From: Escherichia phage FFH2
DNA: 64,000 nt
Sequence record: KJ190158
Reading direction: 5' to 3' (one strand)
The notes beneath the pieces were generated by a model, which saw only the letters and a list, made by a program, of their open reading frames with translations, was not told where the DNA came from and did not search any database. Positions 1 through 61,497 of this stretch are shown piece by piece; position 1 is the first letter of the stretch; each line of letters starts with the position of its first letter. The position numbers and the translations under genes were made by a program.

Positions 1-1983
1 TTATTTGATGTTATTCTTTGTATCGATCAGTTCACGGTATTCAATCATAGCAGGAGTGTCCCAATATTTCAAGCCTACATGCTTCAAAAGTGGGTATTTC
101 TTTTCCAATCTTGCAATATAGGCCTTCCCGCATTTAACTCGGTTGGCGATTAAGATTTTGGCACGATGATTTAGCTCACTATGCTTCCACGCGGTGTTAC
201 CTTCCCACTTGTGGAAATGTGGCCGATAATTTCCAAAATCTTGCATGGGAATAATTTTCCCTAATTGTCTATACAGGCTGTCATATGAAGTTTCATTTGC
301 TGCGCGAGTCAGTAAGAATTTCCAAGCATCCTCTTTCAACAAATGTTCCACACTCTTCTCTGTAACATACTGGCAATCAGGATCAGTCCAAAGCAGACGA
401 GATTCTGATACCAGGTACAGATCTTCCCCTTCAGGAATCTGGAGTGCCGCACGCACACGGTCATAATTTTGCTGGTAGATGTTACTCAGCTGTCCCAGCC
501 AACAACTTCCACGTTGGATATCACCCTCATAAGGAATGCAGTGCTTAATCTTCTTGAACTCTGCCTTAGTAATACGCTCACGACGGAAGTAACCATCCTT
601 CTCAAGTTTTTTAACCCAATACCCTGGCTCATAGTGAGTTTTTGTTTCACCTTTCTTTACAGGACGGCGAGGGAGCTCTGATAACAATTTGACCGTATCT
701 GCAAAGAACGGGTGGTGTGCCGCTTCTTTAAACTCTTCCACCCGATCCGTGTTACGGCAATAGAAAACGTTGCGTCCGGTGATCTCGCTTAAGTAGTTAC
801 ACTTATTTCGGTTATATTTGCCGTCTCCGTCGTTAAATACAAGGTATACACCTCGTAAGAACTCCGACTTTCCGTAACGAGCATAGCCTATGCGGCCTTT
901 ATTTAAGCCGCCAGCGAAAATTTCACAATCGCCTAAGTCGCCAAGCCCTGTTTCTTCCCAACGGTTCCACATAAAGTTTTTGCCGAAGATGTGTCCGAAC
1001 ACTCCACTGTTCTTCATCATCTCACGTGCTTCTGAGGATGTTTTTGCTGTCTCCAATTCCGCAACAACTTCTGCCCCACGAAGACGTATACCTTCTTTGA
1101 CAAAGGCCTCCAGGCGATCCTGGAATCCACCATCGTCGTGCCCCTCTATGGTCCATTCGCGCCCAGGGTTAATATTGCAATCCCCGATAGGGATCTCTAC
1201 ACAGATTGCAGGGTAGTCTGTCAATGTTTCCAGAAACTTAGAGCGGTAAGGTTGGTGTCCCATCACCACACGGCTCTCATCAGAGCTGGTATAACCTTTC
1301 AGGATAGTCATTTTCCAACCATCTTTCTCGTAATGATACTGTGCCTCAACCTTGTCACCTTCTAACATCTTACTGGTCATGGGATCGGTGACGATGAACG
1401 GAAACTTCGCATAGCGTAAGCACGATGCAATAGCAGTGCGATATTTCAGGACATGCTCTTTCTTAACATGGAACTGAACTTTTACCCCGTTGTGCTCTTC
1501 AGTCTTCCGCTCGCGGATCTTGGTAACGTTTGGGATACCCTGATCCAAGAACAATAGATATGTGCTTTCAATACCATTGTGCACACTGATAACATCGAAA
1601 GTGTCCACCATGCTGAACGGAGCCTTTGAACCAACACCTTTATTGCCAACCAGAGCGTTGCTGTTGCGCTTGGTTGACTCACCGAGGTTCATGAAAGTGT
1701 TGCGGACCATCTCTTCTGACATGCCCAATCCAACGTCCTGCACAAAGAAGTATGGTTCAAGGTCTGTAGGAGAGTGAATAATGATCGGCACATCACCCCG
1801 TCCAGACTCAACATGAGAGTCCACAGCATTGAAGATTGGTTCACGGCAGCTTGCCAGCACCTTATCTTCGTAAATCCCTTTAATGATTAGCCCAAAAGTC
1901 TCTTTGTTAAGAGAAATTGAGCCCCTGGTGACCTCCATATTTCCGGTTAGCACTGCTTTAGTTTCATTACTGTTTACAATCAT
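1..1983 (-). CDS. GHKL-superfamily (Bergerat-fold) ATPase domain protein, 660 aa, with ~400-aa uncharacterized C-terminal region
   Basis: Complete ORF (stop at 1-3). N-terminal motifs in GHKL order: EPIFNAVDS (ExxxNAxD), QDVGLGMS (DxGxG), GNKGVGSKA (Gly loop). Start overlaps stop of gene 1980-2480 by 4 nt (ATGA). Confidence 0.6.
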   Translation of the reverse strand: MIVNSNETKAVLTGNMEVTRGSISLNKETFGLIIKGIYEDKVLASCREPIFNAVDSHVESGRGDVPIIIHSPTDLEPYFFVQDVGLGMSEEMVRNTFMNLGESTKRNSNALVGNKGVGSKAPFSMVDTFDVISVHNGIESTYLLFLDQGIPNVTKIRERKTEEHNGVKVQFHVKKEHVLKYRTAIASCLRYAKFPFIVTDPMTSKMLEGDKVEAQYHYEKDGWKMTILKGYTSSDESRVVMGHQPYRSKFLETLTDYPAICVEIPIGDCNINPGREWTIEGHDDGGFQDRLEAFVKEGIRLRGAEVVAELETAKTSSEAREMMKNSGVFGHIFGKNFMWNRWEETGLGDLGDCEIFAGGLNKGRIGYARYGKSEFLRGVYLVFNDGDGKYNRNKCNYLSEITGRNVFYCRNTDRVEEFKEAAHHPFFADTVKLLSELPRRPVKKGETKTHYEPGYWVKKLEKDGYFRRERITKAEFKKIKHCIPYEGDIQRGSCWLGQLSNIYQQNYDRVRAALQIPEGEDLYLVSESRLLWTDPDCQYVTEKSVEHLLKEDAWKFLLTRAANETSYDSLYRQLGKIIPMQDFGNYRPHFHKWEGNTAWKHSELNHRAKILIANRVKCGKAYIARLEKKYPLLKHVGLKYWDTPAMIEYRELIDTKNNIK

Positions 1984-2480
1984 TTATTGCGCTCCTTGTA
2001 GTAGATATGGCTCCCGAATTGAGCTGTCCTCTGCATCTTTTTTGCCCATTTCGGTCGTACTTTGGTTGTATGGTAGTGTGTTGCTCCACCTGTTATGTCC
2101 ATAGCCATGTATGCAACATGGTTGTTATTATAGACCTTTAGAAGCATCTTTGCAAGACTTTTAGCGTGATCCCATGAATCTTTTTCTGTCACCTTAAAAG
2201 TTTTGCCGTGGTTTGTCCACGAAAACTGGTTAGGTTGGTAGACAATCTTTCTTATGGTGTCTGGGTATTTGGGGTGAGATTTCCTGTTTAGGGTGGCAAA
2301 CCCAGATGCCAGCATACCCATCGTGCCATCCCCTCTAGCTTCCCTGTAGATATTGCATGCCAGAATGTTTTCCTTAGTATCTGAGGGCTTGCAAGTATGA
2401 TATACTTTTTGTTTTGGTGCTGCAACAACAGGCAGCGATAAAAATGCGCTCAAAATAATAGCAAAGATCTTAATTTTCAC
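1980..2480 (-). CDS. Secreted cell-wall hydrolase, SleB/CwlJ-like; candidate endolysin
   Basis: N-terminal signal-peptide-like segment MKIKIFAIILSAFLSLPVVAAP; motif NIYREARGDG resembles the SleB-family signature; GGAG RBS 7 nt upstream of ATG. Confidence 0.5.
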   Translation of the reverse strand: MKIKIFAIILSAFLSLPVVAAPKQKVYHTCKPSDTKENILACNIYREARGDGTMGMLASGFATLNRKSHPKYPDTIRKIVYQPNQFSWTNHGKTFKVTEKDSWDHAKSLAKMLLKVYNNNHVAYMAMDITGGATHYHTTKVRPKWAKKMQRTAQFGSHIYYKERNK

Positions 2481-2490
2481 AATAACTCCA

Positions 2491-2516
2491 AATAGAAAAT
2501 CCCCGCCGAAGCGGGG
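2491..2516 (-). terminator. UUCG-tetraloop hairpin (CCCCGC-UUCG-GCGGGG) with U-tract, minus strand
   Basis: Between gene 2530-2910 and the hydrolase gene; hairpin is followed directly by the hydrolase RBS, so it may act as attenuator or processing site. Confidence 0.5.
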
Positions 2517-2529
2517 GAGGTCTTAGAAA

Positions 2530-2910
2530 TTAATCGTAGTGTGCCAAAATCTCTCCATCGTTGCAAGTTCCCTCTACAAAGTTATGAAGATTCATGCACT
2601 CATCTTGATAGAAGAATTTACCGCTTTTCAGCCGTAAGCCAAACAACTCCGCATCTCCACGATGGCAAGCCTCTACAAGTTCATAGATTTCATACGGCAA
2701 CTCTCCGTCGTCATGGAAGAACCCAGCCTTATCGTTGACATAGATGAAGAAATAATCACTGCTATCGCAAGCGTCCAATATTTTAAACCAGATTTCATCT
2801 ACATCTTTTTCTCGGATATCGATCACGCAAGTGGAGCTGCATTCGTACTCCTTCTCCGGCTCCTCGGTCAATACCACCCGGTAATTTCCCCGCTTACCTA
2901 CTTTAGCCAT
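2530..2910 (-). CDS. Hypothetical protein (126 aa)
   Basis: ORF in operon context, followed by UUCG-loop hairpin; no recognisable motif. Confidence 0.45.
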   Translation of the reverse strand: MAKVGKRGNYRVVLTEEPEKEYECSSTCVIDIREKDVDEIWFKILDACDSSDYFFIYVNDKAGFFHDDGELPYEIYELVEACHRGDAELFGLRLKSGKFFYQDECMNLHNFVEGTCNDGEILAHYD

Positions 2911-2919
2911 ACAACCCCC

Positions 2920-4104
2920 TTAAGCTTTAGCTAAAATGGCGCTAAACTCTTCACCAAACTCTTTTACAATCTTCATCAGGTTTGGGTACGCTTTGATCAG
3001 TTGAGCAACGATCTTGTCACGCCCTTTACCGATAAGCAAGGCATTTCCTAAGGCATTAGGTTTCATCATCGCCATAAAGACTGAGAATACAAAATCTCGG
3101 TTCTCGTCCTTGAAGTTTTCCCAAAGGAAATCGAGGAAGTTTGCCACGCAGCTGACAAGATCTTCATCTGAGATACTTGCATTTTCCATCATATTACGAA
3201 TAGCGATACAACCTTCAGATCCAAGAATCCACAAGATGTCTGGCTGTTTAGGACCTACGTATTCTTTGCAACCCCCTGCCATAATCCGACCGATTTCCGG
3301 TAAGTTGCGTTTCTTGGTGTGGTAGGTCCAGATCTCTACCGCTGCAGTGTGACCAATAGCACCTTGCAGAAGAACACGGGCCATAGCGTCAGAAATAATA
3401 CCGCTGTCAAAATCGTGCAAGATGTCAGATGCAGCAACCCAAGATCGTGGTGTGGCAAAAGATGGACAATTAATCTCAGCCATAGCCTCATAATTATCAA
3501 TAGCTGATGGAACTCTTTTCAGATACCCAATCACAGAGGAGTGAACCCCGTTGAGGAATGCGTAGTCCTCAATAAACACCTCTGCATTGCTTGTAACCTC
3601 TACAATGATAAAGCGGTTAGCCAGAGGGGCTTCGAGCGCCGAAAGAACCGCACCATCTGTAGAACGGTTACCAGCAGCCACAAAAACAGAACCTTTAGGG
3701 AATGCATAGGTACCGCACTTGTGGTCAAGCATAATTTGCATTGCAACCTTTTGCAGGTAGTTATCTGCATGAGTGAGCTCATCCAGAAAGATAATTCCGC
3801 TCCAGTTCGGATCTGCAGGCCAAAATTCTGGAATTGCAAACACTGTACGTGTAGTTCCATCAGCTTCTACAGGGATAGGTAGCCCAGATAAGTCGGCAGG
3901 ATCTTTATCTGACAGTCGCACGTCAACAAGGTTGTCATCTCGCTCACCGAACATATTATCAGCGATCTGCTTCATCACCTGGCTTTTACCCACACCCATT
4001 GGTCCCAAAATTAGGACAGATCGGCTATGACGTTGGGCAAACTGAATAATAGCTGGCAACTCACGGACAGTGATTTGACCACTTTCGAATACGTTTCTTG
4101 ACAT
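2920..4104 (-). CDS. MoxR/CbbQ-like AAA+ ATPase (AAA_5-type)
   Basis: Walker A GPMGVGKS and Walker B IIFLDEL in the translation; size and layout typical of MoxR-family ATPases. Confidence 0.7.
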   Translation of the reverse strand: MSRNVFESGQITVRELPAIIQFAQRHSRSVLILGPMGVGKSQVMKQIADNMFGERDDNLVDVRLSDKDPADLSGLPIPVEADGTTRTVFAIPEFWPADPNWSGIIFLDELTHADNYLQKVAMQIMLDHKCGTYAFPKGSVFVAAGNRSTDGAVLSALEAPLANRFIIVEVTSNAEVFIEDYAFLNGVHSSVIGYLKRVPSAIDNYEAMAEINCPSFATPRSWVAASDILHDFDSGIISDAMARVLLQGAIGHTAAVEIWTYHTKKRNLPEIGRIMAGGCKEYVGPKQPDILWILGSEGCIAIRNMMENASISDEDLVSCVANFLDFLWENFKDENRDFVFSVFMAMMKPNALGNALLIGKGRDKIVAQLIKAYPNLMKIVKEFGEEFSAILAKA

Positions 4105-4373
4105 TAGTAAAAGTCCTCTACTTGTGTGTAAGTGTTTTCAAAGTTTTCCAAAACAGATATCACATCGAATCTGTCAATATCATACGTGACTCTCCAGTTG
4201 TACGCAACCCTTTCTGCTGTTGCCTCTTCTGGCGCTAGTCGTCTGCTGGCATAAAAGAGTGTTGGAGTACACTTTCTTGCTTGCCCTCTAACTTTCCCAT
4301 AATAATATCTGTGAATATCTTTGTCAAAATTTAACTCTTTTTCTGCACGAAGTTCATATTGCTGGTACAACAT
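4104..4373 (-). CDS. Hypothetical protein (89 aa)
   Basis: ORF tightly packed in minus-strand operon. Confidence 0.4.
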   Translation of the reverse strand: MLYQQYELRAEKELNFDKDIHRYYYGKVRGQARKCTPTLFYASRRLAPEEATAERVAYNWRVTYDIDRFDVISVLENFENTYTQVEDFY

Positions 4374-4417
4374 CTCTACTACTCCTTAAGCAGCATCCTT
4401 GCCGCCATTCCTGCCCA

Positions 4418-4798
4418 CTAAAATGCAGTCCGAATCCAGACAAGGTTCTTATCTGCCCAATCATAGAGGCAAGTCATTGCACTATTGAATTGCTCACACG
4501 GAGGATAATCTTCTTCCATCTGGCGCATAGCAGAGCCTTGTGGGTAAAGCTCCCGTGCTGCAAACCACGCATCGTAGTCATCCACGGTATCGAAGTAGTA
4601 TACAACATCCTCCAACTCAGGATCGAACTTTGAACTATCAGGATCCAGTTGTTCAGGGAACTTGGAGCGTAACTTGCCAGCCACAATACTTGCCAACTCG
4701 CTAACATGCTTATTGTCCCACTCCACTAGCTTCCCGTCTTCAGTGATGCGTCCTAACCACTGATCATGAAGGTCAACTGTTGTCTTCCACTGAGCCAT
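4418..4798 (-). CDS. Hypothetical protein (126 aa)
   Basis: ORF in operon context. Confidence 0.45.
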   Translation of the reverse strand: MAQWKTTVDLHDQWLGRITEDGKLVEWDNKHVSELASIVAGKLRSKFPEQLDPDSSKFDPELEDVVYYFDTVDDYDAWFAARELYPQGSAMRQMEEDYPPCEQFNSAMTCLYDWADKNLVWIRTAF

Positions 4799-4800
4799 TA

Positions 4801-5058
4801 TCAGTCCACCTCTTCTTCTCGTTGTAGTTCAAGATACCCGTAGGTCTGGACATCTTGAAGGGTGTGGAACTCCCCCTCTGCCGCTAAGGCACGAACAACT
4901 TGGCACAAAACCTTATGAGGAACTTCATCCAAACCTAGATTCAGTGCAGGAAACACCTTATCTAAGTCAACAAAATAAACGAACTGTAGCTCACCAGCTT
5001 CAAAAGGTGTATCTTCAATAAACATCTTCTCGGCATTAGTCAAGATCTGCACTTTCAT
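4801..5058 (-). CDS. Hypothetical acidic protein (85 aa)
   Basis: ORF in operon; 1-nt overlap with upstream gene. Confidence 0.4.
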   Translation of the reverse strand: MKVQILTNAEKMFIEDTPFEAGELQFVYFVDLDKVFPALNLGLDEVPHKVLCQVVRALAAEGEFHTLQDVQTYGYLELQREEEVD

Positions 5059-5414
5059 TATTCTACCTCCTCTTCTTTTTCTTCGGCATTAGTTTCATGG
5101 CTACTCCACTCGGGAGTTTCCACCTCGATAGTAAACTCACGCACTACACGGTAATTGCCCATGAAGCGCTCTACTTCGTCAAGGCTTATGGAGAGGCCAT
5201 TGGCAACCAGGTCTGCAGCACCCTCTTCTACCAGGTAGTCCAGATTGGCCTCCAGAGCCTCAGGTTCAAACCCTGTCAATGCAATCAGATAACCTTCCCC
5301 TTCATCAGGGAGGACAATACAGCCCAATTGATTTTCTTTAAAAAGGCAGTGACCATCATTATTGATTGGGTGTTCATTGCAGTAAATAGCTGCACGATAA
5401 GTAACTTTAGACAT
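5058..5414 (-). CDS. Hypothetical protein; start revised to ATG at 5414 (MSKVTYRA...)
   Basis: AAGGAG RBS 9 nt upstream of ATG at 5412-5414; track start at 5435 lies inside the upstream gene end. First 29 nt shared with an internal site of the plus-strand ORF at 7253-7281. Confidence 0.5.
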   Translation of the reverse strand: MSKVTYRAAIYCNEHPINNDGHCLFKENQLGCIVLPDEGEGYLIALTGFEPEALEANLDYLVEEGAADLVANGLSISLDEVERFMGNYRVVREFTIEVETPEWSSHETNAEEKEEEVE

Positions 5415-5427
5415 CGGTAAGGTCTCC

Positions 5428-5706
5428 TTAGGCAATTGTCATTTTACATTCTTGAAATTTTAACACAAGACGGTGATTGTGTCTAGTGTCTAAAAAGATT
5501 TTTTCAACCATCAGGCACACGGTATAACCGTCCATCTTGTTGACAACAAAATCTCCAGGATGAGGGAGGATGTCTCCCGGATTGGGGAAACATAGTTCAC
5601 TCAGAAAGGCATCGTCAGTGGTGGACTTAATAGATTTCCACACACTGTCTGCCTGAACATGTTCACCGACGTAATATACATTACCACATGCCTTCATCAT
5701 AGTCAA
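5428..5706 (-). CDS. Hypothetical protein (92 aa)
   Basis: ORF in operon, 4-nt overlap with upstream gene. Confidence 0.4.
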   Translation of the reverse strand: MTMMKACGNVYYVGEHVQADSVWKSIKSTTDDAFLSELCFPNPGDILPHPGDFVVNKMDGYTVCLMVEKIFLDTRHNHRLVLKFQECKMTIA

Positions 5707-6602
5707 ACCCTCGCATAAATTAAACTTGTATCAGTATACTTCTTTAATGGGTAAATATCCTGTCCATAGATGCAATCATTAAACACCTCATCTACCCAAA
5801 GGCTACACTTATATCCCATCATTTCTAAAACACCCATCTCTTCTTCGGTAAACTTATCACCGCTCTTGCAAGATGTCAATACCTCATTCTGAACTCTTGC
5901 CACCTCGAAGCGGTTATTGGCAATATCGCTATTGGCGATCAAATACTCACCTAAAGGGTGTGCGGCATTAAAGATGCACAGTGGACGGCTGACGTAATAG
6001 TCTCCGGGTGTATAAAAATTGTTGAGGTCTTTCACTAGAACATTCTTATCAGTCACTTCATTTATAACATCATGCATATCGCACATCTTTATATGTTTGA
6101 GGATTCCATCCCCCATCACAAAATAAAAACTTGCTGAGACACTTTCGGCATAGATCTTACTAGATCCGTTGTAGTTGTATTCTACTCGGATGCTAACGGG
6201 GGTTTTTCCTGTCGCGTTAGCCATCATCCAAAGAAATGGCAGCTCATACTTCTCCTCTGAGGAAACAAAAGGTGAGGTAGCCAGAGATCGAAAACCTCCA
6301 GAGAAGTTGAAAGTTACAGAACCGCTCCGGCGGTATGATACCGCGTATTCTACTTTTATATCGACGTACCCATTGGAATAGGTGTGTCCTTCATTATCTA
6401 AATATGTCCACTTATCAGACCCAGATACCAATCTACGCTCAATAACCTTCATCACTACAGGAATTAGTGGGTTGGTACAAACCGCTTTTGAAGTAGCTTT
6501 ATCATCTAAAGCCTCGTAAATTGCAGAAAGGATGTCCCCAGCTGAAAGATTGGTTGTTATGTCCTGTTTCCACCGCGTACTAAAACTGTTAAGATTTGCC
6601 AT
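5703..6602 (-). CDS. Hypothetical protein (299 aa), first gene of minus-strand early arm
   Basis: AGGAG RBS about 10 nt upstream of ATG; sigma70-like promoter immediately upstream. Confidence 0.55.
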   Translation of the reverse strand: MANLNSFSTRWKQDITTNLSAGDILSAIYEALDDKATSKAVCTNPLIPVVMKVIERRLVSGSDKWTYLDNEGHTYSNGYVDIKVEYAVSYRRSGSVTFNFSGGFRSLATSPFVSSEEKYELPFLWMMANATGKTPVSIRVEYNYNGSSKIYAESVSASFYFVMGDGILKHIKMCDMHDVINEVTDKNVLVKDLNNFYTPGDYYVSRPLCIFNAAHPLGEYLIANSDIANNRFEVARVQNEVLTSCKSGDKFTEEEMGVLEMMGYKCSLWVDEVFNDCIYGQDIYPLKKYTDTSLIYARV

Positions 6603-6642: not shown

Positions 6643-6671
6643 ACTATATTGTGGAGTTAGAGTAAAGTCAA
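6643..6671 (-). promoter_or_regulatory. Sigma70-like promoter for minus-strand early arm (-35 TTGACT, 17-nt spacer, -10 TATAGT)
   Basis: Read on minus strand; about 40-nt leader with AGGAG before ATG 6602. Confidence 0.5.
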
Positions 6672-7727: not shown

Positions 7728-7742
7728 GGGGCCAATGGCCCC
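7728..7742 (+). terminator. GC hairpin GGGGCC-AAT-GGCCCC, weak terminator or attenuator
   Basis: Between plus-strand genes; U-tract poor; overlaps upstream ATG of vWA ORF. Confidence 0.3.
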
Positions 7743-9216
7743 TTCTGGAGTTTTAATGGATAGCAGAAGTTCAGAAATCATTGCCTCGCAGAAAGATGAT
7801 GCCCTGAGAATGTTGCAGGCTGCACGTATGTATCTCCTTGAAAAGCTGCCGTTCTATGGCACACTACTGTCAGGGTTGCAGTTCGTAGAAAACCACACAT
7901 GGTGCTCCACCATGGCAACCGACCATAAACGCATCTATTACAGTCCTGAGTTCATTATGGGATTGGCTGATGAACGCAAGGCTATTCTTAAGGCTTCTCT
8001 AACTGACGAGCAGTTTGAGATGGCTGAAGTTTTCTATTCCCCAAAATCTGTGAAAGAGGTGGCCTTCCTTCTGTCACATGAGGTGGGGCATATTATCTGT
8101 GATCACCTAGTCCGTGGTAAAAGCTTTGAGCCGGAACTGTTCAATATTGCTTGTGATCACGTTATCAACACAGGCCTTGTGGTTGACTTTAGCAAACCTC
8201 CTTGTGTTTTCTTCCCGAAGGGGAAAAGCACTACGTTCGTGAAAGGTAAGCCTTTTGGATTCTTAGCCAGCTGCTACTGCGACATGAAGTTTCATGGATG
8301 GATTGCTGAGAACGTCTATGCAGTTCTTGATAAGCAAAGAGATCAGAATAACGGTAAAAGTAAGAGCGGTAAAGGTGAGAACTCTCAAGGAGATAAGCGA
8401 CAAACCGATGATCACATGAGTGGTAACGGTGGCACCAGTGATGATCTTGGAAAGGCTATGGGGTATGATCAGCCACAACCTGTAATCAGTCAATCTGATA
8501 AAGATCAGGCCATGCAGGACTCTGGTGACATGCTGGAGGCAGCAATGCAAGCTTCCGGAGGCCGTTGCCCTGAGGCGGTGCGTGAGTTTGTCAAGAACAG
8601 AGGTAAGCCTGTAATTAATTATATAGACATCATCAAGCAACGCATGTTGTCTAAACGAAAGGCTGAACTGACCTACAGAAAACCTGGTCGCCGATCTGGG
8701 TCTTTGACCAGCACAATGCGAAAAGTTGGGGCTATAAACAAGAACCAGCACGTTATTGTTCCTGGTCGTAATCCGGAAAACACCATAGATATTGTGGTAG
8801 CTTTAGACGTTTCTGGCTCGATCTCTCAAAGAACTTTAAAGAAAATGTTCAATGAAATCACCGGATTGTGCAATCTGTATAAAGAGTTTAAGGTTACAAT
8901 GTTCTGTTGGTCAACTGAAGTCGGAGAGGTTAAAGTATACACTCGCGGCAACATAGACGAGATGATCAATTATGAGGTCCACTCAACATGGGGCACAACA
9001 GCTGCTTGCGTGTTCGAGTATCTGGATGCTAACATACCGAATGCAAAAGATGTCATCGTCCTGACCGACCTATACTTTGAGCATAACTTTGAACAAAAGG
9101 CTGTTGACAACAAGTGGAAAAAGTACGATACTCTATGGGTTCTCACCGAAGGGTATAATAAAAATTATATTCCGAGCTTTGGGAAAACTGTGGAATTAAT
9201 CGAGTACGCTAAGTAA
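7735..9216 (+). CDS. vWA-domain protein with N-terminal HExxH metallopeptidase-like motif; likely start ATG 7756
   Basis: HEVGHIICDH (HExxH) in N-terminal half; vWA MIDAS motif VVALDVSGS with downstream STWGTT and VIVLTDL. ATG 7735 lies inside a GC hairpin; ATG 7756 has GGAG 7 nt upstream. Confidence 0.65.
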   Translation: MAPSGVLMDSRSSEIIASQKDDALRMLQAARMYLLEKLPFYGTLLSGLQFVENHTWCSTMATDHKRIYYSPEFIMGLADERKAILKASLTDEQFEMAEVFYSPKSVKEVAFLLSHEVGHIICDHLVRGKSFEPELFNIACDHVINTGLVVDFSKPPCVFFPKGKSTTFVKGKPFGFLASCYCDMKFHGWIAENVYAVLDKQRDQNNGKSKSGKGENSQGDKRQTDDHMSGNGGTSDDLGKAMGYDQPQPVISQSDKDQAMQDSGDMLEAAMQASGGRCPEAVREFVKNRGKPVINYIDIIKQRMLSKRKAELTYRKPGRRSGSLTSTMRKVGAINKNQHVIVPGRNPENTIDIVVALDVSGSISQRTLKKMFNEITGLCNLYKEFKVTMFCWSTEVGEVKVYTRGNIDEMINYEVHSTWGTTAACVFEYLDANIPNAKDVIVLTDLYFEHNFEQKAVDNKWKKYDTLWVLTEGYNKNYIPSFGKTVELIEYAK

Positions 9217-29168: not shown

Positions 29169-29199
29169 AGCATAAAAATAAACCCCGCCGAAGCGGGGC
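29169..29199 (-). terminator. UUCG-tetraloop terminator (CCCCGC-UUCG-GCGGGG plus UUUAUUUUUAU)
   Basis: After J-like gene; promoter follows. Confidence 0.6.
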
Positions 29200-29207
29200 T
29201 TTAAAGG

Positions 29208-34435: not shown

Positions 34436-34467
34436 TACAAACAAAAAGCCCCCGCCGAAGCGAGGGC
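34436..34467 (-). terminator. UUCG-tetraloop terminator (GCCCUCGC-UUCG-GCGGGGGC plus UUUUUGUUUG)
   Basis: After gene 34474-34806; promoter follows. Confidence 0.6.
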
Positions 34468-49570: not shown

Positions 49571-49608
49571 CGTGTGTCAAAACCATAAAAGCAAAAAGCC
49601 CCACCCGA
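49571..49608 (-). terminator. UUCG-tetraloop terminator (9-bp stem with one G-U, U-rich tail)
   Basis: After tube gene; promoter 49517-49545 follows. Confidence 0.6.
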
Positions 49609-49635
49609 AGGTGAGGCTTATGCTAAAGTGTGCCC

Positions 49636-59267: not shown

Positions 59268-60815
59268 TTAGATAAAACGCTTGAACATAGAAGGTGATGA
59301 GATTGATGGAATCACACAAGGAAGTGCTACCTCCTCTTTCTCCAGGAAATTAATCGCAGAAGCTACACAGTCTGCCCAGTCGTCTTTTCTGTTAAATGTT
59401 GATCTTTCCCCGTTGAATTTTTCAAGTTCAGTCAGAAATGCTTCCAGAGTATCAGGATGGAAACTGGATTTTACAATCCTCACCATTCCTTGTTGTGCAA
59501 GATTGGCAAAAGGTGAGAACCTTGTCAGTTTAGATTTGTTGGAAGGCATTGGGTCTTCTTCAACCCTGAACCCTTCGGCGAGCAAGGATCTGGATGAGGT
59601 TAAGAACTCACTCTTACCTGCCTGACCAGGGTCCACAGAGAATACGATTATGCAATCATCACCATCAAACTGCGCCTGTTTCCTGATGATCACATCTCGT
59701 TCACCAGCCTTTTTACAGAACTTGCCTTCCAGACCTGTGGAATACCTCCCGTCATCCACGTTCTCAGGACAATAATCACCGGACAGGTAATAAAAGCCGT
59801 CGCTATCTTTACTTACCTTAATACTGGCGGTAAAGTCAGGAAATTTATTACCGGAAGTTCTCTCGGTTCCTGCCTTATCCCATGCCCTGCAAGATACTGA
59901 TCCAAGGGGTACTCTATCGGCATCACGAAGGAAAGATCTTTGAAAATAGTTTGCACCCTCAGGCTTTGCAAACCAGTTACCATGAAGAAGCTGAGCTTTT
60001 TCCAGTTCCGGCAGACCTTCAAGGAAAGCAAGGTATTCTGGGTTGTCTCTTAAGCAGACAGGATTATCGAATATTGTTGCGCCTATAAACGAGAATGACA
60101 ACGGTCTTGGCTTGATCTCCACACCCAGTCCGTTAACCGTGGTGTATTTCTCTATCAACTCTTCTTTAGAGTCTCCCCATATAAATTCACCGTCGCGTCG
60201 GATAAAATATCTTTTCTTACCGCATTTCTCCGGATCTGGATACCCTTCATCGTCCAACCACCATCTAACCAGTTTGGCAAGCATGTGTTCTGAATCGGGG
60301 TTACAGCTGATAACCATTCTTGATGGATACTTTGACTGAGATCGCAGACGAGACATCAGATAGTCTATCTGCTCCCATTCGAACTGCGTGCCCTCATCGA
60401 AGCAAACCATGGTGTACTCAAGCCCCTGATGGTTAAGCTTATCTTGTACATACTCCATGTGGCAGTATTTTACAACAGCTCCCTTTTTGCTTCTATCCCA
60501 CTTGCCAGTGCTCGGATCAAACCGTGGAAAAATGAACTTATGATCCTTCTCTCTAAACTTTGGCTTAATGTTTTCAGGCAGATCACTATAAATAGCTACT
60601 GCTTTAGGCCATAGTCCACCCTCACCTTCCAACTGCGGGGTTGTTCTTCGGAACATAACCACAGAGCTGTGGGGGTCATCAATAATTTTAAGCGGCATCA
60701 ACTGCAAGAGGAACGACTTGCCAGACCCTGCGGCACCGCCGATTACCAAAATATCTGCATCGTTTTCTAGGATCATCTTCTGCTTTTCAGAACACGGTCC
60801 GTAAATCTTAGACAT
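59268..60815 (-). CDS. Terminase large subunit (515 aa)
   Basis: Walker A VIGGAAGSGKS and Walker B-like MVCFDEGTQ in N-terminal ATPase half; Asp-rich C-terminal nuclease-like half. Confidence 0.85.
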   Translation of the reverse strand: MSKIYGPCSEKQKMILENDADILVIGGAAGSGKSFLLQLMPLKIIDDPHSSVVMFRRTTPQLEGEGGLWPKAVAIYSDLPENIKPKFREKDHKFIFPRFDPSTGKWDRSKKGAVVKYCHMEYVQDKLNHQGLEYTMVCFDEGTQFEWEQIDYLMSRLRSQSKYPSRMVISCNPDSEHMLAKLVRWWLDDEGYPDPEKCGKKRYFIRRDGEFIWGDSKEELIEKYTTVNGLGVEIKPRPLSFSFIGATIFDNPVCLRDNPEYLAFLEGLPELEKAQLLHGNWFAKPEGANYFQRSFLRDADRVPLGSVSCRAWDKAGTERTSGNKFPDFTASIKVSKDSDGFYYLSGDYCPENVDDGRYSTGLEGKFCKKAGERDVIIRKQAQFDGDDCIIVFSVDPGQAGKSEFLTSSRSLLAEGFRVEEDPMPSNKSKLTRFSPFANLAQQGMVRIVKSSFHPDTLEAFLTELEKFNGERSTFNRKDDWADCVASAINFLEKEEVALPCVIPSISSPSMFKRFI

Positions 60816-61102
60816 TAACCTCTCTCCTTTGGAAACAGTGTTCTAATATAGTCTTGCAAAATGATCAATTTAGCTCTATCATTGCTACAAGACAGATTAT
60901 TATCCCTCATAATGCCAGAATTCACCGCATCTGGCGCACCCTTCTTTAAAGGTATAGCTTTAGCAGGTGGTTTCATGGCACCTTCCGGGGGTTTAACAAT
61001 CAACCTTCCTACATCTGGAGGGTCAATCTTGTATTCTCTCTCAACGCTGGTTGCACACCCACACAATAACAAGCACACAATAAACAGTGCAGCAACTCTC
61101 AT
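60815..61102 (-). CDS. Outer-membrane spanin (o-spanin, Rz1-like)
   Basis: Lipoprotein-type signal with Cys cluster (FIVCLLLCGCATS), Pro-rich mature region; immediately follows i-spanin with 4-nt overlap. Confidence 0.5.
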   Translation of the reverse strand: MRVAALFIVCLLLCGCATSVEREYKIDPPDVGRLIVKPPEGAMKPPAKAIPLKKGAPDAVNSGIMRDNNLSCSNDRAKLIILQDYIRTLFPKERG

Positions 61103-61497
61103 CGACCCTCCTGATTAATACTCTCATTATAAATATCTATAAGCTGATCAGGGAGTGTTGACTTCTTACCCTCAGGTGATTGGAGGTAAATAATCTGCTT
61201 TTCTTTACCTGCCTTCTCAGCCATATTTAATTTATCCTGCAGGTCAGAAAGGGATTTTTCAAGGTTTTTAACCTCCTCTGCGTGGCCCATTTTAATTTTG
61301 TCGGCCTGCTTTTGTTGCTGATCAAGGATCCGTTCCCACTTTAACTCTGTTGCTGACACACCTTCTTGGTAGGCATCATTAAGCTTAGAGTTAAACCAAT
61401 ACACGGCTCCAAGATAAGCTGTACCTATCGCAGCTGCAAAAACTAAACCTTTTATGATCCCTCTATACCTACTCAGCCATGTTAAAACTGAAATCAT
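61099..61497 (-). CDS. Inner-membrane spanin (i-spanin, Rz-like)
   Basis: N-terminal TM helix GLVFAAAIGTAYLGAVYWF, then periplasmic coiled-coil region. Confidence 0.55.
   Translation of the reverse strand: MISVLTWLSRYRGIIKGLVFAAAIGTAYLGAVYWFNSKLNDAYQEGVSATELKWERILDQQQKQADKIKMGHAEEVKNLEKSLSDLQDKLNMAEKAGKEKQIIYLQSPEGKKSTLPDQLIDIYNESINQEGR

Follow-up and report, generated by a model that had tools for sequence, protein, structure and literature searches.

A SleB-like hydrolase gene with a predicted export signal, set between a terminator hairpin and rIIA, in the early region of the Vequintavirus Escherichia phage FFH2

The first 64 kb of the genome of Escherichia phage FFH2 (sequence record KJ190158; the 64,000 nucleotides analysed are called the window below) carry a gene for a SleB-like cell-wall hydrolase, corresponding to gene 2 of phage rV5. 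Weighing domain content, export signal, surrounding signals and the lysis genes of close relatives, we consider that gene 2 most probably (at about 0.55) encodes a Sec-exported, soluble and low-dosed accessory muralytic enzyme, supplementing or backing up a lambda R-type endolysin.

The window comes from a Vequintavirus and covers the first 64 kb of its genome. In a megablast search, positions 1–6000 matched 123 phage records at 90–99 % identity, nearly all from Escherichia phages that belong to the genus Vequintavirus (rV5-like); across the full 6 kb, HdK5, magaca, nimi and others matched best, at 98.5 % identity, and LL12 stood at 98.2 %. Position 1 is the conventional genome start and falls at the rIIA stop codon on the minus strand. 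For the region beyond the window, the annotated genome of LL12 (136 kb) served as a map.

Domain, fold and predicted export signal of the gene 2 protein

The features of gene 2 itself were as follows.

1980–2480, minus strand: gene 2, SleB-like (Hydrolase_2) open reading frame (ORF), 166 aa, starting with GTG; corresponds to the 'cell wall hydrolase' gene 2 of rV5
2486–2489, minus strand: ribosome-binding site (RBS) GGAG of gene 2, 5 nt before the GTG, from the sequence and the RBS annotation in LL12
2421–2480, minus strand: predicted Sec (signal peptidase I) signal peptide MKIKIFAIILSAFLSLPVVA, codons 1–20, cut before Ala21, from n/h/c-region anatomy and hydropathy
2340–2342, minus strand: GAA codon of Glu47, predicted catalytic glutamate, invariant in alignments
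1998–2330, minus strand: Hydrolase_2 catalytic domain, residues 51–161 by Pfam

An earlier, sequence-only reading of this DNA had placed the protein in the SleB family, and a check against the hidden Markov model for Pfam Hydrolase_2 (PF07486, the SleB/CwlJ catalytic domain) bore this out, with a match at E=2.1e-19 and 70.4 bits (cutoff 27) over profile positions 2–100 of 100. The protein also falls in PHROG 938, and a sequence search of the PDB matched it to SleB (4F55, E=2.5e-6). An AlphaFold2 model had a predicted local distance difference test score (pLDDT) of 88.5, with low values for residues 1–20, and its Foldseek comparison with the PDB returned SleB structures 4F55 and 4FET only, at probability 1.00 and a TM-score (TMt) of 0.72–0.79. 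The SleB equivalog model (NCBIfam TIGR02869, spore_SleB) was not reached, the score being 48.3 bits against a cutoff of 236.5 and the match being confined to the C-terminal catalytic part (profile positions 83–201). No PG_binding Pfam match was found in the protein, which is without a peptidoglycan-binding domain. The gene 2 product is not a SleB orthologue; it consists of a Hydrolase_2 catalytic domain standing alone.

For comparison, five lineages of the Vequintavirinae were sampled (the genus of the window, Mydovirus KB57, Seunavirus 4MG, Certrevirus CR9 and LTH01); the lineages compared here are not independent of one another. Glu47 and 15–19 further residues were invariant in alignments across Vequintavirinae, Stephanstirmvirinae, T5-like and Pakpunavirus homologues, and the enzyme therefore appears, from these alignments, to be under selection for catalysis. 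Glu47 aligned with the first Glu of the SleB motif YGESRGE, which is reportedly the catalytic residue of SleB (structure papers of 2012). Both Vequintavirinae and Stephanstirmvirinae conserve Cys30 and Cys42, as would suit a protein in an oxidising compartment.

The N-terminus had been described as signal-peptide-like, and it does show the n-, h- and c-region anatomy of a Sec signal. It reads MKIKIFAIILSAFLSLPVVA/APKQK, where the slash marks the predicted cut: two Lys residues are followed by a 12-residue hydrophobic core of mean Kyte–Doolittle hydropathy 2.71, and the cleavage region has Pro at −4 and V-V-A at −3 to −1, giving a predicted cut VVA/A after residue 20. Across the segment I5–A21, I, L, F or V account for 10 of the 17 residues, and there is no Gly. 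The N-termini of homologues from eight further lineages were compared, with the following predicted cuts.

KB57 and 4MG (Mydovirus, Seunavirus): ...TPVLA/KDN
CR9 (Certrevirus): ...ATALA/KDN
ALITA and anhysbys (Stephanstirmvirinae): ...TPVVA/Q or K
T5-like homologue: ...SSQA/SHD
LTH01 homologue: ...VTYA/KE

A small-x-small (AXA-type) site and a basic n-region were kept in seven divergent lineages, in which the sequences of the hydrophobic core differ. A hydrophobic N-terminus was also present in 71 of 78 IMG/VR homologues; a few were lipoprotein-like and a few were 130-aa forms without a signal. Because of these sites and N-termini, export to the periplasm is predicted to be a trait that the phage family conserves. 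Buttimer et al. (2020) reported a signal peptide for CB7_83, the Certrevirus orthologue, and found its expression in E. coli to be toxic (data not shown).

The suggestion that gene 2 encodes a signal-anchor-release (SAR) endolysin did not hold up well. In such an enzyme the N-terminal helix would tether the inactive protein to the inner membrane until depolarisation releases it. A SAR domain is weakly hydrophobic, with much Gly, Ala and Ser, whereas the core in gene 2 is I/L/F/V-rich and free of Gly; moreover, Pro at −4 and V-V-A/A fit signal peptidase I, and the small-x-small site has outlasted changes of the core in the seven lineages. These features argue for cleavage by signal peptidase I and against a SAR domain, and in appearance the N-terminus is that of a protein with a cleavable signal peptide and not of one with a SAR anchor. 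A tethered enzyme would be compatible with the 19-residue window of mean hydropathy 2.29, which is enough to span a membrane, and with the homologue of the Pseudomonas phage PAK_P1, which has an N-terminal transmembrane domain (TMD) and no obvious cleavage site and was the sole one to resemble an uncleaved anchor. Overall, a SAR endolysin is considered very improbable.

The hairpin before gene 2 and its transcription unit

Four hairpins of the C(UUCG)G type were located in the window, one of them immediately before gene 2.

2490–2516, minus strand: intrinsic terminator t003, C(UUCG)G hairpin at 2501–2516 and interrupted U-tract at 2490–2500; in rV5 Table S4, and annotated 'terminator' in HdK5, EdH4 and Murica
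29180–29201, 34448–34467 and 49596–49619, minus strand: three further C(UUCG)G terminator hairpins with near-identical cores, e.g. CCCCGCTTCGGCGGGG, within the long structural-gene array

The hairpin of t003 (CCCCGC-UUCG-GCGGGG, 2501–2516, minus strand) has a 6-bp all-GC stem and is followed by the tail AUUUUCUAUUU and then by GGAG. On the minus strand the complete 49-nt intergenic region reads TAAGACCTCC-CCCGC-TTCG-GCGGGG-ATTTTCTATTT-GGAG-TTATT-GTG. The hairpin begins 14 nt after the gene 3 stop and lies 11 nt upstream of GGAG, the RBS is not occluded by the stem, and the gap from stem to GTG is 20 nt; the description of a UUCG hairpin that runs into the RBS with no room for a promoter was accurate. 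The layout is that of an intrinsic terminator, with a GC stem-loop and a U-rich tail just 3' of a gene on the same strand. The fold was −13.5 kcal/mol in this analysis; the identical sequence is listed as t003 at 2490..2516(-) with −16.0 kcal/mol for rV5 (Table S4, PMC3606486). Compared with shuffles of its own GC-run-rich 39-mer the hairpin was not significant (z=−1.4), and a lenient terminator scan gave matches at chance level. The hairpin is taken to be real because of its position, since a GC hairpin abuts the RBS in five Vequintavirinae lineages with unrelated stems.

All four GC-rich C(UUCG)G hairpins in the window carry U-tracts, lie on the minus strand and start 7–17 nt after a stop codon. 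With its 6-bp stem and interrupted U-tract, t003 is the weakest of them. With −16.5, −16.9 and −21.8 kcal/mol, stems of 8–10 pairs and longer U-runs, its three counterparts are stronger, and they leave 73–123 nt before the next gene; in two of these three gaps the rV5 tables place the late promoters P036 and P040 (PMC3606486).

Among the relatives, a GC hairpin followed directly by the RBS was found before the homologue in each of the five Vequintavirinae lineages, with a U-tract in four and no clear one in LTH01. The hairpins outside the window genus were as follows.

KB57: stem-loop AGCCCC-GCAAT-GGGGCT
4MG: stem-loop AGCCCC-TGCCCT-GGGGCT
CR9: 11-bp stem
LTH01: hairpin also present

Across these lineages the stems have unrelated sequences, and no homology links the upstream genes; the hairpin therefore travels with the hydrolase gene and not with the gene that precedes it. 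In Stephanstirmvirinae and Menderavirus the order is hairpin, good sigma-70 promoter, hydrolase gene, and T5.083, the homologue in phage T5, has no upstream hairpin. A terminator-like hairpin as a general feature of phage homologues was considered and rejected, as 5 of 78 IMG/VR loci had one under strict criteria; the pattern is therefore specific to Vequintavirinae.

A different role for the hairpin would be that of a 5' stabiliser or processing boundary of a gene 2–rIIA–rIIB mRNA, the C(UUCG)G loop protecting the transcript, with termination or attenuation not its main function. C(UUCG)G hairpins are reportedly unusually stable intercistronic elements in T4 mRNAs, and the position of the stem, 11 nt from an RBS that it leaves free, would suit such a role, as would the equivalent hairpin of LTH01 with its unclear U-tract. 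However, U-rich tracts right after the stem, as seen in the window, KB57, 4MG and CR9, are the hallmark of an intrinsic terminator, and the three other UUCG hairpins of the window stand just after stops, with long U-tracts and room for late promoters. A mainly stabilising function is therefore regarded as possible but doubtful, and the two roles are not mutually exclusive.

The surroundings of gene 2 within the leftward unit were as follows.

1–1983, minus strand: rIIA, 660 aa, N-terminal GHKL/HATPase_c_3 domain; rIIB is next, across the record start, in relatives
1980–1983, minus strand: ATGA overlap, the rIIA ATG sharing two bases (TG) with the gene 2 stop TGA
1992–1996, minus strand: RBS AGGAG of rIIA, strong, within the 3' end of gene 2, from the sequence and the LL12 annotation
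2530–2910, minus strand: gene 3, 126 aa, acidic, phrog_12370, function not assigned
2920–4104, minus strand: MoxR-like AAA+ ATPase, weak AAA Pfam matches, phrog_1297 ATPase (E=1.5e-110), same leftward unit as gene 2
6643–6671, minus strand: sigma-70-type promoter TTGACT-17-TATAGT (rV5 P010), from our own scan and rV5 Table S4, nearest catalogued upstream promoter on the same strand

The coupling of the hydrolase to a GHKL ATPase gene that had been read from the sequence was recovered as the ATGA overlap, and the ATPase gene is rIIA. About 100 near-identical phage records annotate the 660-aa gene in this way, and the identity is as expected from the HATPase_c_3 domain, from rIIB as the next gene in LL12, 4MG and KB57 and from 39–40 % identity to the rIIA of 4MG and KB57. 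No membrane span was found in the gene 3 product. In rV5, genes 10-1-238-164 are described as one leftward transcription unit running from a bidirectional promoter region that separates genes 10 and 11, and the tables give no promoter between P010 and gene 231 (PMC3606486). A Vequintavirus transcriptome was not found in the literature.

On this basis, host-type promoters farther upstream in the leftward early unit (P010 at ~6.65 kb and possibly others) would drive transcription of gene 2, and since the hairpin stands just 20 nt before the start codon, the transcripts would have to read through t003, a weak terminator. The GTG start and the 4-nt RBS would keep the output of gene 2 low, and rIIA, with its own AGGAG and ATG, would be initiated separately. 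A leaky terminator and a weak initiation site would in this way keep the dose of a toxic exported enzyme low.

Some observations on promoters and neighbours of the unit are recorded here. A TTGACA-17-TATTAT site at 4299–4327 (minus strand), inside gene 5 and upstream of the MoxR-like ATPase gene, is the best sigma-70-like match in the first 7 kb (11/12); it is not among the published rV5 promoters and could feed a MoxR–gene 3 transcript that ends at t003. Inside gene 2, ~145 nt upstream of the rIIA start, lies a promoter-like TTGCAA-17-TATAAT (2127–2155, minus strand; 10/12), which if real would let rIIA/rIIB bypass t003, such matches occurring at chance frequency in the region (16 found, 14 expected). 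The MoxR-like ATPase (2920–4104, minus strand) and a 'putative metallopeptidase' (7735–9216, plus strand) flank the divergent early promoter region, and in ALITA (Stephanstirmvirinae) the third gene upstream of the SleB-like one encodes a VWA-domain protein; a module of the MoxR/VWA type is possible.

Other lysis genes and the loci of relatives

Two lysis genes were placed within the window.

60815–61102, minus strand: o-spanin, lipobox LCGC, beside the large terminase
61099–61497, minus strand: i-spanin, N-terminal TMD

The pair (60815–61497, minus strand) lies 58.3 kb from gene 2, in agreement with the ~58 kb noted before. Ten tail, baseplate and large structural proteins of the window matched structural Pfam families only, and no other peptidoglycan hydrolase was found among them. 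The sequence-only reading had called the gene 2 protein the only recognisable cell-wall hydrolase; this is right within the window and probably wrong for the phage, since the nearest relatives carry a lambda R-type endolysin at ~71.6 kb, and the claim is an artefact of the 64-kb view. In LL12 the endolysin is a 156-aa protein (71,587–72,057, plus strand; ~7.6 kb past the window end) with a full-length match to lambda lysozyme R (PDB 1AM7) at E=3e-56. Pfam and NCBIfam gave no match for this LL12 'endolysin', and the lambda R type was identified by PDB and PHROG searches. It is 100 % identical in LL12, magaca, Murica, EdH4, rV5_ev146 and others, all at least 98 % identical to the window.

The authors of the rV5 genome named gp89 the 'obvious lysin' and proposed gp129 (78 aa, 2 TMDs) as holin (PMC3606486); the LL12 equivalent of gp129 is at 94,058 (plus strand). 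With spanins at ~61 kb, endolysin at ~72 kb and holin candidate at ~94 kb, the lysis genes are therefore scattered in the genus, and gene 2 is an additional enzyme. The view that gene 2 is not part of a classic holin–endolysin–spanin cassette was thus sound, its neighbours being gene 3 and rIIA. A canonical holin–endolysin pair elsewhere, which had been named as evidence that would overturn that reading, was found in part: relatives do have the endolysin, which is not adjacent to the holin. With its export-type N-terminus and the absence of a lysis cassette around it, gene 2 also differs from a canonical cytoplasmic endolysin.

Beside the spanins, the large terminase ORF at 59268–60815 (minus strand) was observed to be one segment of a gene; in LL12 the gene is a joined, intron-containing coding sequence, and the o-spanin stop abuts its start. 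The rV5 large terminase has been described as split, with a homing endonuclease (PMC3606486).

The gene 2 protein was found by tblastn in 1,264 phage records, including T5-like phages, Phapecoctavirus, Justusliebigvirus, Pakpunavirus and Menderavirus, and in T5-like, rV5-like and phi92-like phages a Hydrolase_2 gene with a predicted export signal is repeatedly found as an orphan, second muralytic gene. The status of such genes as a second 'endolysin' far from the holin has been remarked on in several papers, with the role left open, for T5-like phages, Phapecoctavirus, Septuagintavirus, PVP-SE1/BME3 and Certrevirus. Functional data come from T5, where a transcriptome-wide dCas13d knockdown scored T5.083 as 'Not Fit', the endolysin gene lys (T5.040) as 'Not Fit' and the holin gene (T5.041) as 'Fit' (Adler et al. 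2025, supplementary file 16). This result is compatible with redundancy of two muralytic enzymes, or with limited sensitivity of the screen.

The gene orders around the homologue in other Vequintavirinae were as follows.

4MG (Seunavirus): hydrolase, 57-aa two-TMD protein, rIIA, rIIB, helicase
KB57 (Mydovirus): as in 4MG, the small protein being an unannotated 50-aa homologue
LTH01: hydrolase, overlapped by a 70-aa two-TMD protein that has a basic tail, then helicase; rII absent
Certrevirus: like LTH01; 65-aa protein proposed as class II holin (Buttimer et al. 2020)

A two-TMD gene of 50–70 aa thus lies directly after, or overlaps, the hydrolase gene in four lineages (4MG, KB57, LTH01 and most Certrevirus), and the repeated presence of this holin-like neighbour links the hydrolase with lysis more than with rII. 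Three of the five Vequintavirinae lineages showed adjacency to rII, which T5-like phages and Stephanstirmvirinae lack. At the KB57 locus (4036–4188, plus strand), the 50-aa ORF lies between the SleB-like gene and the end of the record, immediately ahead of rIIA; it has two hydrophobic segments, shares 49 % identity with 4MG gp078 and represents a holin-like or membrane partner that RefSeq does not annotate.

One alternative assigns gene 2 the part of a true secreted endolysin of the fOg44 Lys44 type, which would stay inactive in the periplasm until the membrane is depolarised, leaving the lambda R-type gene secondary. PHROG 938 and RefSeq do label the protein 'endolysin', the CR3 orthologue (CR3_087) is 'implicated in host lysis' (annotation only), the CB7 orthologue is toxic on expression, and a holin-like gene is adjacent in four related lineages. 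Against this, the full-length lambda R homologue is present in all nearest relatives checked, without a change among them, and both the rV5 authors and the LL12 annotators give the lysin role to the lambda R-type gene and omit gene 2 from the lysis set. Gene 2 moreover sits behind a terminator, with a weak start, in an early unit, and knockdown of T5.083 had no fitness effect. Gene 2 as the sole or main endolysin is therefore judged improbable.

A second alternative separates the enzyme from terminal lysis altogether. As an early periplasmic effector it would remodel or nick peptidoglycan locally for superinfection exclusion, bring about envelope changes together with the membrane-associated rIIA/rIIB, or counter an envelope-linked defence. 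The setting would suit this, as gene 2 lies in a leftward unit with sigma-70-type promoters and replication genes, overlaps rIIA by ATGA and is part of an order (SleB-like, rIIA, rIIB, helicase) that is kept in Vequintavirus, Seunavirus and Mydovirus, and the gene is always additional to a normal endolysin. T5.083 is dispensable in the laboratory, as are many conditionally needed genes, and rIIA/rIIB of EdH4, a close relative, are likewise needed conditionally: knockdown of either had an effect only when the host expressed lambda RexAB (Adler et al. 2025). However, Certrevirus and the LTH01 lineage keep the hydrolase without rIIA/rIIB, the T5-like and Stephanstirmvirinae homologues are not beside rII genes, rIIA has a strong RBS of its own, so that the overlap need not mean functional coupling, and the holin-like two-TMD neighbour in four lineages points to lysis. 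An early effector is thus the leading alternative, though one that we think unlikely. Much the same standing is given to a broader form of the idea, in which the whole package found in rV5-, phi92- and T5-like phages (hairpin abutting the RBS, often GTG or TTG, Sec signal, SleB-type transglycosylase) would be a deliberately low-dosed early wall-editing effector and not a lysis enzyme, acting in superinfection exclusion, in conditioning the envelope for rII/spanin systems or in blunting an envelope-sensing defence.

We therefore favour an accessory muralytic enzyme. The pre-protein would be exported by Sec and cut after Ala20, releasing a soluble 146-aa enzyme into the periplasm, where a possible Cys30–Cys42 disulfide may stabilise it. 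This small, basic enzyme would cut glycan strands by means of Glu47. The principal endolysin would be the cytoplasmic lambda R-type transglycosylase encoded outside the window, and the gene 2 enzyme, reaching the periplasm without a holin, would pre-weaken the sacculus or back up the endolysin at lysis.

Several points weigh against an accessory enzyme of this kind. Bacillus SleB reportedly needs muramic-delta-lactam, which E. coli murein does not have. A transglycosylase that was made early and was both soluble and active in the periplasm would be expected to do harm, and neither an inhibitor nor an activation step can be discerned for the gene 2 enzyme. Read-through of t003 is an assumption, and unrecognised phage promoters could be present instead. 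The weak-start pattern among homologues (GTG in the window; TTG in KB57, 4MG, ALITA, anhysbys and three IMG/VR relatives; ATG in CR9, LTH01 and T5-like phages) is suggestive only because non-ATG starts account for 15 of 104 LL12 genes (14 %), and the GTG of gene 2 alone means little. A homologue of the two-TMD gene of Seunavirus or LTH01 was not found by tblastn in the window or in the LL12 genome. The sole experimental hints are the toxicity of CB7_83 ('data not shown') and the negative T5 knockdown, in a screen that missed known important genes including T5 lys. Ladybird-beetle proteins, the sole tested Hydrolase_2 proteins found, inhibited B. subtilis and did not inhibit intact E. coli from outside; their activity on B. 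subtilis does imply that the domain is not restricted to the spore cortex.

A role in entry was considered as well. Among the rV5 virion proteins that the authors name in the main text from mass spectrometry, gp2 is absent (PMC3606486), which argues against a virion-borne entry enzyme.

Two observations concern the records used for comparison. Gene 3 is given as the T5.083 homologue in rV5 Table S3; this was rejected, as gene 3 had no match in the T5-like locus and T5.083 is the Hydrolase_2 gene itself, and the homologue entry in the table appears to be shifted by one row (genes 2/3). In addition, among the matches to positions 1–6000 and to the gene 2 protein, 16–23 GenBank records named 'Campylobacter phage' (MG0656xx, unannotated, host C. 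jejuni) were 98–99 % identical to the present E. coli rV5-type sequence and look like mislabelled or contaminant assemblies.

Significance and comparison with known systems

Taken by itself, gene 2 is an ordinary feature of the window and had been catalogued before; the question it raises is why many large virulent coliphages keep an enzyme of this kind, predicted to be exported. Hundreds of large virulent enterobacterial phages, including those used in therapy and biocontrol (rV5-, T5-, phi92- and PVP-SE1-like), carry a SleB-like gene with a predicted export signal beside a normal endolysin. The automated label 'endolysin' misleads inventories of lysis genes and the mining of phage enzymes as antibacterials. 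Export signal, hairpin followed by RBS, weak starts and frequent two-TMD neighbour together suggest that a toxic periplasmic enzyme has been selected to be made in small amounts.

The literature on the type phage already covers the gene, its terminator and its rIIA neighbour, and in an orthologue the signal peptide has been pointed out before. In rV5, gene 2 and t003 have identical coordinates (1980–2480 and 2490–2516) and the same hairpin sequence, so that nothing structural differs, and the gene 2 protein is 99.4 % identical to the phage V5 protein. The rV5 gene is entered as 'cell wall hydrolase, 1980..2480, PF07486' in Table S3 (Kropinski et al. 2013, Virol J 10:76, PMC3606486). Gene and terminator appear there in the supplementary tables only, and the main text does not contain the word 'hydrolase' or mention a signal peptide or the abutment of terminator and RBS.

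The closest parallels are CB7_83 and CR3_087 (Certrevirus; Buttimer et al. 2020) and T5.083, each a stand-alone Hydrolase_2 domain behind a signal peptide and each a second muralytic gene in an early or replication region, away from endolysin and spanins. Certrevirus differs in having an overlapping two-TMD holin candidate and no rIIA/rIIB, whereas the window gene overlaps rIIA and has no adjacent membrane protein. T5.083 differs in its ATG start and in having no upstream hairpin.

With SleB and CwlJ of Bacillus, the gene 2 protein has the catalytic fold in common, and the aligned Glu lies in a Y-x-E-[AS]-R-G motif, at ~21–24 % identity overall. In contrast to these enzymes, it has no N-terminal peptidoglycan-binding domain, acts, if it does, in a Gram-negative host and has no evident YpeB- or GerQ-type partner. 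Lys44 of Oenococcus phage fOg44 is a muralytic enzyme carried across the membrane by a cleavable signal peptide, without a holin, as is predicted for the gene 2 product; Lys44 is the sole endolysin and is encoded in a lysis cassette, whereas gene 2 is an extra enzyme in an early unit, with a separate cytoplasmic endolysin. SAR endolysins and pinholins (P1 Lyz, phage 21 R21/S21) share an N-terminal hydrophobic export segment, and the two-TMD neighbour in related genera recalls a pinholin. Gene 2 differs from P1 Lyz and R21/S21 in its strongly hydrophobic, Gly-free segment with a kept putative signal peptidase site, in its catalytic fold and in having no adjacent two-TMD gene.

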